64,000 nt of DNA, from assembly GCA_040377305.1 (NCBI GenBank), contig JBEIPA010000020.1, positions 34,326 to 98,325 on the forward strand. Direction: 5' to 3'. This DNA comes from Flavobacteriales bacterium (GTDB lineage Bacteria > Bacteroidota > Bacteroidia > Palsa-965). The notes beneath the pieces are model-generated. The model saw only the letters and a program-made list of their open reading frames with translations, was not told the origin of the DNA and did not search any database. Positions 11,586-17,364 of the stretch are shown here, piece after piece. Each line of letters starts with the position of its first letter. Within the stretch, counting starts at the first letter, position 1. Both the position numbers and the translations under genes were made by a program.

Positions 11586-11624
11586 TGCATCTGATCTCTT
11601 CCCGGATCAGCATATTAGTTATAT

Positions 11625-11814
11625 GTGCAGTGGCAGGTCTTCTGACTTGTCCGGTTTTTGGCGCCTTCCCGTCAGCCGAGGCAAACAGTGGCATTTAGAG
11701 GCCAAAACTTCATCCCGTATTACCGGGGGACTTACAGCAGCGGGAACTGTTCCTGAGTTTCACAGGATTCCCTTTTCATTCCGATTGCAGCCAAGCGTTC
11801 GGAAACCAATGCGC
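11625..11814 (-). promoter_or_regulatory. cobalamin riboswitch
   Basis: Minus strand reads ...AAAAGGGAATCCTGTGAAACTCAGGAACAGTTCCCGCTGCTGTAA...GCCACTG...GGGAAGGC...AAGTCAGAAGACCTGCC; TACATTTG promoter just upstream. Confidence 0.95.
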
Positions 11815-11877
11815 AGCAAATGTAGGAAAAAGTCTGAGATGAGAAATCGTGACTCTTATTGGCAGGCAGATGTCGGC

Positions 11878-12093
11878 TTCATGTAGTGCCCCTACAGGGC
11901 ACGGTGGCTCACGGGTGTCTGTGGCTTATGCATGTTTGGCTGCGCTGCAGCCGGGTGTAGAGAAAATACACCCGGCTGCTTTTGATCAAATGCATTACAA
12001 TACTTAGAGCACTCGGCTGCAGAGCAGCCAAACATGCATTGCTTTAGCAATGCCCTCCCCCCTTTTCCTTTTGTGTCCCGTAGGGGCAACAAC
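11878..12093. repeat. composite four-REP palindromic array, left of tnpA
   Basis: catgtagtgcccctacagggcac, catgtttggctgcgctgcagcc, ggctgcagagcagccaaacatg, gtgtcccgtaggggcaacaaca. Confidence 0.85.
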
Positions 12094-12229
12094 AACAAAC
12101 ACCGCTCTGCATTTTCATTCGCCGACCCAAACTTTTTTGAACTTAAACGTTTGTAAACGGCTTAAGTTATTTTCATGTTTTATGTTTGCAACATATCAAT
12201 AATGTTTTATCATTTAATCTTAAATTTTT

Positions 12230-12691
12230 ATGGCTAACACTTATTCAAAAATTTACCAGCACGTAGTTTTCGCCGTGCGCAATCGTCAGGCTCTTATCAC
12301 AGAGAAATTCGAAACTCCGATGTATGAATACATGAGCGGCATCGTAACTAATCAAGGACAAAAACTTCTGATTGGAAACGGTCATCACGACCATGTGCAT
12401 TTGCTAATGACTTGCAAACCTACCTGTTGTCTTGATCAGGTAGTTCGTGAAGTAAAAGAACACACAACGAAGTTCATCAATCAGAATCGTTTGGTACCCG
12501 GAAAATTTCAATGGCAAAATGGTTACGGTGCATTTTCCGTAGGGCATCAGAATCTTGATATGATCTTCAACTATATCCGAAAGCAAAAAGAGCATCACAC
12601 CACTGTAAAATTCCGGGAAGAGTATTTGCAGCTACTGAAAGATGCGGCAGTGGAATACGATGAGAAGTACATCTTTGACGAACTCGTCTAA
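12230..12691 (+). mobile_element. tnpA: IS200/IS605-family HUH Y1 transposase (TnpA/RAYT-like), no tnpB
   Basis: HVVFAV, DHVH (HUH), WQNGYGAFSV, YIRKQKEHH (catalytic Tyr, YxxxQ). Confidence 0.92.
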
Positions 12692-12723
12692 CAAAACCTG
12701 ACTTGGGCTGCGCAGATCGTGGT

Positions 12724-12988
12724 TTCATGTTGTGCCCTTACAGGGCACGTGGCTCGCGTACATTCGTGGCTTATGCATGTGTGGCTGCGCTGCAGCCGGG
12801 TGTGGTAGAAATACACCCGGCTGCTTTTATATAATGCATAATCAAACTCCGACTATGGCTGTGCGGATCTCGCCTGCATGTTTGGACGCATTAATAAACT
12901 GCATTTGAAATGAAAAAGGCTGCAGAGCAGCCAAACATGCATTGCGATAGCAATGCCCAATTAATAGTGCCCTGTAGGGGCACAACAT
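12724..12988. repeat. composite four-REP palindromic array, right of tnpA (diverged direct repeat of 11878-12093)
   Basis: Same four units in the same order plus the same internal hairpin gcagccgggtgt..acacccggctgc. Confidence 0.85.
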
Positions 12989-12992
12989 AAAA

Positions 12993-13820
12993 TCAGGTAG
13001 TCTTGTAGAGATACCATCCATTCCCCAACGGCCGTATCAAAATAAAATACCCCGCTGTCACCGCGGGAATTTTTGTTGGGTCGGGTTGATACATGTAGCC
13101 AACAGAATTGTCGAGTACACCGCCCACATGATACAACACTGTTCCTTGAGCTTTGGGGTCAAGAAGAACATCACGCAGCAAAAGTTTATTCATCACTTTG
13201 CGCATTTTCTTATCGATGTTCAGACTGATCTTGAGCGTGTCGCTTGCTTTCAATGGAAAATTCTTTGCACGCATTTTCTCCAGCTTCAGAAAGGCTTCCT
13301 TGTTGTCGTAAAAATGCTGTGCGAGTAAAGTATCTGACTTTCCCCACAGCACTGTGTTGTCATAATCGAACTGCCAGGTGTGATTGGAAATGTTGGCGTA
13401 TGGCTTTCCTCGTTGCTTTGTAGGCACACTATCCAAACGCTTCAACTCGGCTTTGGCAAAGTCTTTCATCACCAGTGAACGCACGGCATAAACTGTCCAT
13501 ACCGTTCGATGTTGCAAATAGAAATACACATCCATTGAAGTCGTTGAATCGTGCAGCCAAACGGTAATAACCGCACGCGCCGAGTCCTCATACAACAAGG
13601 TGAACTCCCGCTTCACAGACACGGCCAATTGTTCTCCCAACGTTTTCGGCGCTCCCCACTCGTGATACATTTCACAGCAGAAGTGACGCATCTTCTCCGG
13701 GAAACCCTGCGGCGACAAATACTTCTCGATCACACGCATGGGCGAAAGCGTATCACCTGCGTTTTGTGCATTCACTGAAATCGTGAACATCAAAAGAAAA
13801 ATGGAGAGAAGTTTTTTCAT
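12993..13820 (-). CDS. hypothetical exported protein
   Basis: Signal peptide MKKLLSIFLLMFTISVNAQ at 13820; last gene of the surE-lpxB operon. Confidence 0.75.
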   Translation of the reverse strand: MKKLLSIFLLMFTISVNAQNAGDTLSPMRVIEKYLSPQGFPEKMRHFCCEMYHEWGAPKTLGEQLAVSVKREFTLLYEDSARAVITVWLHDSTTSMDVYFYLQHRTVWTVYAVRSLVMKDFAKAELKRLDSVPTKQRGKPYANISNHTWQFDYDNTVLWGKSDTLLAQHFYDNKEAFLKLEKMRAKNFPLKASDTLKISLNIDKKMRKVMNKLLLRDVLLDPKAQGTVLYHVGGVLDNSVGYMYQPDPTKIPAVTAGYFILIRPLGNGWYLYKTT

Positions 13821-17228: not shown

Positions 17229-17364
17229 GCGACTCTATGGAGTCGCATATTCCTAACAAAACGCCCCTTTCTAAAGTCCCAATGCGCGGCGCCTTCGGCG
17301 CCGCGCATTGGGACGGAGAGTAGCCACTGGTACTTGTTAGGAATATGCGACGCCATAGCGTCGT
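17229..17364. repeat. REPIN-like element: two REP hairpins around an 18-bp perfect stem
   Basis: gcgactctatggagtcgcatattcctaacaa / ttgttaggaatatgcgacgccatagcgtcgt; inner stem 17276-17314. Confidence 0.8.

Follow-up and report, generated by a model that had tools for sequence, protein, structure and literature searches.

An IS200-type Y1 nuclease gene between arrays of paired-hairpin modules: a probable REPtron-like locus in a Flavobacteriales bacterium

Two questions, by what route IS200 transposases turned into REP-associated nucleases and in what way REPs spread, are described as open in the portions available of two studies (Bertels 2017, 10.1101/119735; Corneloup 2021, PMC8266576). Among the Y1 proteins closest to the one considered here, TnpA-Y1 subclass 1.2 is listed with no REPs in Table 1 of Quentin 2018 (PMC6006769, available in part), and a term search of the two supplementary files of that study returned a REP table with no row for subclass 1.2. 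A second description, again from a partly available source, is that of "RAYT-like IS200 Group 3" (Bertels 2017, 10.1101/119735), whose members are not duplicated, are absent from plasmids, and are flanked by abundant 16-mers. IS200 Group 3 may be the same as subclass 1.2.

The locus described here lies in a window of 64,000 nt, the whole stretch of DNA analysed, and pairs an IS200-type active site with REP-like repeats, in a subclass that had been reported to lack them. What is already known is the protein class; what is undescribed in the literature found is its repeats only. The literature searched, which included few subscription papers and did not include ISfinder, held no description of these repeats, nor did the available text of Di Nocera 2013 and of a 2026 preprint on noncoding clusters; IS200, TnpA, and RAYT go unmentioned in the accessible main text of that preprint.

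The tnpA gene and the modules that flank it

As the original prediction had stated, the catalytic motifs of the 153-aa ORF are intact (H55-x-H57 and Y115xxxQ119), and the gap between the neighbours of tnpA contains no tnpB-like ORF. The protein passes the Pfam Y1_Tnp profile and scores 74 bits with the NCBIfam IS200/IS605 profile NF033573 (cut-off, 55). The Pfam core ends at residue 119 of 153; beyond it is a C-terminal extension with near-invariant tail residues and, in the model, a helix at 128 to 138. H55, H57, W95, Q96, Y115, Q119, and H123 are invariant in 50 aligned homologues, and YxxxQxxHH is found in 115 of 119 extracted homologues. Three homologues (L034, L052, and L096) carry an internal stop codon. 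In the predicted structure (pLDDT 88), the nearest folds are ISDra2 and IS608 TnpA (Z 14.5, rmsd 1.9, 107 aligned), and the next is E. coli TnpA-REP 4ER8 (Z 11.3, rmsd 3.7, 126 aligned).

A phylogeny against IS200 TnpA and RAYTs, proposed with the original prediction, placed the family beside the IS200 rows and apart from the RAYTs. In this tree of 74 rows, made by a quick method with 45 of the 119 homologues drawn at random and only 5 IS200 and 17 RAYT rows, a branch with SH-aLRT 86 splits off the 52 family rows, which lie beside the 5 IS200 rows and are set apart from the 17 RAYTs (99). The DHVH, WQ, and YIRKQKEHH of the ORF are motifs given for subclass 1.2 in Table 1 of Quentin 2018 (PMC6006769; bioRxiv 10.1101/279083), and W95/Q96 match by motif W94/Q95 of E. 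coli TnpA-REP, which the available text places among the residues at the GTAG guide (PMC6006769). As judged from sequence, TnpA is a member of the published subclass 1.2 and not a RAYT, an assignment that rests on motifs and our own tree, not on Quentin's clusters or profiles. Membership in the RAYTs was rejected: the motif is YxxxQ, not Y---NP, the RAYT profile NF047646 gives 20 bits against a cut-off of 80, and the protein lies outside the RAYT branch.

Sequence reading and repeat search identified two arrays that bracket tnpA, at about 11881 to 12088 on the left and 12727 to 12988 on the right (Table 1). They had been predicted to be the same array in direct repeat, and this is what we find, with 80 nt at 85%, 41 nt at 95%, and 38 nt at 84% identity and a spacing of 845 to 903. 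The order on both sides is A> B> central hairpin B'< A'<, each array being two modules that face each other, with four family hairpins per side of tnpA, and each folds as one long palindrome. The predicted A-B-hairpin-B'-A' order and fold are thereby borne out; the left A' is, however, degenerate and stands 59 nt from B'. The foot of Module 4 stops 4 nt short of the stop codon of the right neighbour (12993 to 12995).

Table 1. Positions of features in the window
Feature	Position	Strand	Details
Cobalamin riboswitch	11615..11825	-	Rfam RF00174, 100.9 bits; precedes 672-aa gene
Module 1, left array, inward	11881..11952	+	A-to-B 51 nt; foot ATGT 11881-11884; hairpin A 11887-11901; TTAT 11926-11929; foot ATGT 11932-11935; hairpin B 11938-11952
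Central 13-bp hairpin, T tail, left array	11947..11979	+	3' arm of B in common; terminator-like
Module 2, left array, faces away from tnpA	12015..12094	-	hairpin A' 12074-12088 (degenerate); CAAT; hairpin B' 12015-12029; A-to-B 59 nt
Putative tnpA promoter region	12145..12188	+	genome-wide upstream motif at 12145-12160; TATGTTTG at 12181-12188
tnpA, 153-aa Y1/HUH nuclease, TnpA-Y1 subclass 1.2 by sequence	12230..12691	+	DHVH 54-57; WQ 95-96; YIRKQKEHH 115-123; C-terminal extension
Module 3, right array, faces away from tnpA	12727..12797	+	hairpin A 12733-12747; TTAT 12771-12774; hairpin B 12783-12797; A-to-B 50 nt
Central 13-bp hairpin, T tail, right array	12792..12824	+	
Module 4, right array, inward	12918..12988	-	hairpin A' 12968-12982; CAAT; hairpin B' 12918-12932; A-to-B 50 nt
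Gene-free three-hairpin element, two outward modules with common central hairpin	17230..17363 (17229-17364 in the original prediction)	.	C19-paralogue subfamily

The central hairpin is found at this locus only and is absent from all six solo quartets described below; the right-hand copy is a possible terminator of the tnpA transcript. The region between the left array and the gene probably serves as the tnpA promoter, and it contains TATGTTTG, which we take to be a match to the Bacteroidota -7 box TAnnTTTG. The motif upstream of it is one of 47 genome matches (this one plus 46 elsewhere) to a 17-base sequence beginning CCGTTT; some are extended into 11-nt tandem copies, and the motif precedes numerous genes that have no relation to one another, four tnpA paralogues and a RAYT among them. 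The neighbours of tnpA are, on the right, a 313-aa gene and, on the left, a 672-aa gene behind the riboswitch. The latter is TonB-dependent-receptor-like in appearance and probably a B12 receptor. In congeners the riboswitch is kept next to the same right-hand neighbour.

The repeat unit is one module, consisting of hairpin A, 22 to 27 nt, a conserved YWAY tetranucleotide, 8 nt, and hairpin B, with an A-to-B period of 48 to 54 nt. Near homologous genes the consensus reads, in order, a WTRT head, 2 nt, hairpin A, 22 to 27 nt, YTAY, 8 nt that include a second ATRT head, and hairpin B. The original prediction described bulged GC stems; the stems are instead of 5 bp around a 5-nt C...G/A loop, and A and B belong to one hairpin family. 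It had also distinguished two REP types, but with the fixed period and the single hairpin family A and B are halves of one module, and independent types were rejected. In the paralogues on C4, C8, C38, and C43, the period of the module that immediately precedes tnpA is longer (57 to 61 nt), and its spacer is purine-rich.

Copies of the strict unit ATGT-NN-stem5-loop5-stem5 number 28 in the 5.18-Mb genome, seven of them at this locus, as against 1, 0, and 1 in three Markov controls; the array repeats are therefore not due to chance. When eight arrays are aligned, 99.4% of 160 cells pair, with compensatory change in 14 cells and 0 of 500 shuffles as high, a lenient control given that the structure was derived from those same eight arrays. 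That REPs are conserved and spacers diverged, as first proposed, is clear from six solo quartets of the type found here, in which feet and hairpins are 69 to 91% identical and spacers 33%.

Modules in this genome, in homologous loci, and in relatives

A strict scan of the genome yielded 33 modules, against none in either the reversed or the complemented control. Cluster detection gave 37 clusters (2 and 0 in controls), and a foot-based census gave 73 B units (4 and 4 in controls). As for tnpA, whose copy number was to be compared with that of the REPs, the genome carries seven paralogues, with 29 to 63% pairwise identity. We found no near-identical tnpA duplicates in the 60-contig assembly, in which identical repeats may be collapsed, and the solo elements are dispersed; this is the opposite of the near-identical IS copies without solo REPs that had been named as the contrary case. 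An ordinary multicopy IS200 was rejected, there being no near-identical copies and more than one hairpin per end. The genome also carries class-2 (RAYT-like) Y1 genes (C49:214484, C3:388, C52:172624, and C8:24105), one of which exceeds the cut-off for NF047646, along with several further repeat families of high abundance.

Most paralogues have their own module subfamily, sorted by foot. Type I, with the foot found at this locus, forms six gene-free quartets, on C2, C6, C10, C27, C54, and C60. Type II modules lie beside the C46 paralogue and in about a dozen solo quartets, type III modules lie beside the C19 and C8 paralogues, and outward-facing forms flank the C38 and C43 paralogues. The three-hairpin element of the window belongs to type III; it bears the foot GTTAGGAATATGC that flanks the C19 paralogue, not the foot of this gene, and the proposal that the present TnpA seeded it was rejected. 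In one case only, a quartet at C17:58094, type II outer arms surround a type III inner pair, and the switch falls at the tetranucleotide. The most divergent paralogue (C1:1-1200) is flanked by tandem repeats with different hairpins and was missed by the module scan.

Of 37 outer ends, 18 are 12 nt or less from an in-pointing stop codon, many of them at 5 to 6 nt, a count made with crude ORF calls, with no null model, and including at least one shadow ORF. This adjacency fits targeting and later spacer trimming alike. Rfam at gathering score gave nothing in 20 module-bearing loci except one tRNA; 14 solo loci gave sub-threshold miRNA-type matches only, with no match to Acido-Lenti-1 or Flavo-1. 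Around tnpA itself, the cobalamin riboswitch was the sole Rfam family to pass.

The modules recur beside homologous genes. Among 126 homologous loci, which are kin and not independent and of which the named ones are almost all Bacteroidota, 16 were left out for short flanks; of the 110 with full flanks, modules were present at 74 (0 in reversed controls), on both sides at 28, and as an outward pair at 22, and the scan found no module at 36. Quartets on both sides were seen at only 1 of the 110 by strict scan. At 107 loci, units of the form stem5-C[TG]NN(N)[GA]-stem5 numbered 152 in 148 kb near the homologues and 11 in 229 kb farther off, and same-strand units had a sharp spacing peak at 48 to 54 nt. 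When only the 5' half was used to find candidates, base pairing at 4 to 5 of 5 positions was seen for 275 of the 377 near the gene, compared with 6 of the 128 far from it. The locus also suggests that many lone "IS200/IS605 transposase" labels in Bacteroidota do not denote ordinary insertion sequences.

A comparison with relatives, the empty-site check put forward originally, points to a gain in this lineage. The right neighbour was found in 24 of 27 congeners (a tally that counts the source genome and the unpublished G012, on which no conclusion here depends), and 18 of the 23 other loci were examined, L117, L119, and L131 to L133 being left out. At ten of these the riboswitch adjoins the right-hand neighbour, and tnpA is present in none of the ten. 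In nine the gap is 132 to 462 nt, versus 1259 in the source genome; in the tenth, the closest relative (G015), it is filled by an unrelated ORF of about 1 kb (L134, G015:C305:4576-6242). The C38 paralogue is likewise missing from its site in G015. At five of the six type I solo sites, the same gene pair is adjacent in G015, none with a quartet, and the C54 flanks are not adjacent there; at the C27 site, two relatives have no gap at all. The A hairpin 15-mer occurs in 0 of 5 relatives. Most simply, the gene and the quartets were gained in this lineage, loss in all relatives being less likely; with tnpA absent from all ten congeners that have the same neighbours, this is probably a lineage-specific gain and not an old, fixed housekeeping locus. 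That the locus is "domesticated," as the original prediction had it, is accordingly doubtful.

Slots that hold a quartet here carry other palindromic repeat families in relatives (L159, L165, L171, and L177 of G015; L166, L184, and L192), and such intergenic gaps look as if repeatedly refilled. Exact module ends were not readable from the orthologous sites, where the gaps are filled by other repeats or genes. Sequencing run X2, which comes from a different study, contains tnpA and parts of the right array in nearly unchanged form, and no excision joint that skips the cassette was seen in X2 or in X1, a possible source run. A single contig of X2 connects 1122 with 1383 over a type III element (L247), stop to stop; its short side is only 22 letters, it may come from another organism, and it was given no weight.

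Explanations for the association of gene and modules

We favor a REPtron-like explanation, with a probability of about 0.58: an intact subclass 1.2 Y1 gene is flanked by four modules that are also dispersed gene-free, and the enzyme would bind, nick, and spread these modules on single-stranded DNA. Its observed basis is the anatomy of the module, its dispersal, the paralogue-linked subfamilies, the conservation of hairpins, feet, and spacing against random spacers, and the empty orthologous sites. By analogy with IS200/IS605 chemistry (He 2013, PMC3597680) and work on REPs (Corneloup 2021, PMC8266576), both drawn on in part, we propose that a TnpA dimer would grip both hairpins of a single module, A with one subunit and B with the other, the strand concerned being that with an ATRT head 5' of each stem. 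A nick at the conserved YWAY between the hairpins, predicted between A and Y, would yield a phosphotyrosine link, and strand transfer or copying primed by the 3'-OH would then make, reshuffle, and move inverted module pairs. The predicted cut comes from analogy with the guide rules of group 3 REPs, which, applied to ATRT, give a cut between A and C or between A and T, a step present in the tetranucleotide. For the gene we picture only infrequent movement, either carried along between modules or horizontally transferred. Because most of the seven paralogues have a repeat subfamily of their own within a single genome, cross-specificity is testable with short oligonucleotides.

Some observations sit less easily with this mechanism. 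Across 49 modules, Watson-Crick covariation between the tetranucleotide and either foot was near chance (B-9/B-4 in 19, B-9/A-4 in 26); B-9 and A-stem position 2 are complementary in 39 of the 49, a figure confounded by lineage, and the match fails at this locus. By the IS608 rules in the available text of He 2013 (PMC3597680), strand transfer requires a left linker longer than 8 nt. Mismatches divide 6 versus 4 between the strands, which favours neither, and with six type I solo quartets the copy number is low for a REP system.

The same layout might instead reflect a slow autonomous IS200-type element, which we consider unlikely. B would be its left end and A its right end; the 845-nt segment from left TTAT to right TTAT (B...tnpA...A) would excise as a single-stranded circle and insert into existing modules, leaving the solo quartets as MITE-like relics. 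Insertion into one quartet is expected to give the direct-repeat layout, and visual inspection of L003 and L069 shows a similar layout. The absence of tnpA from the site in 10 of 10 congeners, the empty site of a second paralogue, the seven paralogues in one genome, and a fold and profile nearest to IS200/IS605 TnpA agree with such an element as well. Yet paralogue identity never exceeds 63%, full-length relatives of more than 30% identity turned up in just 2 of 72,556 plasmid records, each a 600-kb Bacteroidota replicon, and in none of 50,697 phage records, both-side quartets are confined to a single locus by strict scan, and the solo copies retain hairpins and spacing with randomised spacers, unlike dead relics. 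The opposite strand could also be the active one, though this seems to us rather improbable: the module, read there as B-8 nt-RTAR-22 to 27 nt-A, resembles the junction between the right and left ends of IS200/IS605, and TnpA would cut after RTAR, usually GTAG or ATAG. On that strand 92 of 146 loops read YG(N)NAG, which could mark it as the folded one; cG(N)NAg-type loops form very stable DNA hairpins. The linkers of IS200/IS605 are similarly short on the right (8 to 10 nt) and long on the left (15 to 19 nt) in the text available of He 2013 (PMC3597680). Nevertheless, neither hairpin has a conserved guide 5' of it on that strand, the tail columns are near random, and it is the other strand that matches the geometry of group 3 REPs.

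We think it very unlikely that the modules are simply RNA 3'-end elements kept by the host, as terminators or mRNA stabilisers, with tnpA only their historical source or a bystander. The stop-codon adjacency of 18 of 37 outer ends, the frequent presence of unrelated palindromic repeats in orthologous gaps, and the resemblance of the central hairpins to intrinsic terminators would be expected of such elements, but the paralogue-linked feet, the fixed 48- to 54-nt period, the conserved tetranucleotide, and the enrichment beside homologous genes (152 units within the 148 kb nearby, against 11 within the 229 kb farther off) are left unexplained, and Rfam at gathering score returned no family in the 20 loci apart from one tRNA. 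A 3'-end role can hold in addition to the REPtron-like explanation, with which it is compatible. Extending the latter, one can envision, tentatively, that subclass 1.2 is an unrecognised REPtron class between IS200 and RAYTs, in which a bipartite module would mimic an IS200 end-junction and a dimer would cut the internal tetranucleotide, swap halves between co-resident paralogue families, and put inverted pairs right behind stop codons across Bacteroidota; we regard this as possible and less than probable.

Comparison with known systems

The protein agrees with subclass 1.2 as given in the available text of Quentin 2018 (PMC6006769) in its DH[IV]H, WQ, and YIxxQKEHH motifs, its length of about 150 aa with a C-terminal extension, its occurrence in Bacteroidetes, and its divergent copies per genome. 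It differs in that the subclass was published without REPs, whereas a two-hairpin module flanks 74 of 110 loci here, and in having 7 copies against a published mean of 1.7. The modules contradict a descriptive trait of the subclass, not the assignment of the protein. With IS200 Group 3 (10.1101/119735) it shares an IS200-like protein without duplicates, and the flanking 16-mers of that group are a published hint of partner repeats; the available text gives no repeat, taxonomy, or sequences for the group, and the comparison is by description only.

IS200/IS605 TnpA (IS608 and ISDra2; PMC3597680, in part) has the same fold and the same HUH and YxxxQ catalytic set, and two hairpins with a tetranucleotide between them resemble its right-end/left-end junction. 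Here, in contrast, there are no identical copies, four modules stand in place of two ends, guide/cleavage covariation did not rise above chance in 49 modules, and four family hairpins lie on each side where IS200/IS605 elements have one subterminal hairpin per end.

The original prediction of an undescribed Bacteroidota REPtron class holds for the arrangement, the non-GTAG foot, and the recurrence across Bacteroidota, but the protein class had already been described, as subclass 1.2. Relative to RAYT/REPtron systems, the locus has a gene flanked by inverted palindromes that recur gene-free; the GT[AG]G head is absent, its position being taken by ATGT (WT[GA]T in the consensus of the family), and the stable, vertically inherited locus of those systems is not what is seen in the congeners. 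The group 3 (subclass 2.5) REPtrons and BIMEs, such as Stenotrophomonas Smal4 and Marinomonas Mb, differ in having YxxxNP, where this protein has YxxxQ, and a GT[AG]G head in place of ATRT. In addition, the unit here is a tandem hairpin pair with a fixed period and an internal tetranucleotide, its copies number tens and not hundreds, and the locus is not common to congeners. In the parts available of the published accounts (PMC2817692; PMC8266576), however, these REPtrons have a gene bracketed by inverted short perfect hairpins, each with a four-base head, 2 nt, and a 5-bp stem, together with solo copies scattered as inverted pairs, genomes with several cognate systems, and hybrids between families, all of which are found here. 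The Smal4 REP (Nunvar 2010, PMC2817692, Table 1) shares the head-2 nt-5 bp-C(3)G geometry and has the same CGCTG loop.
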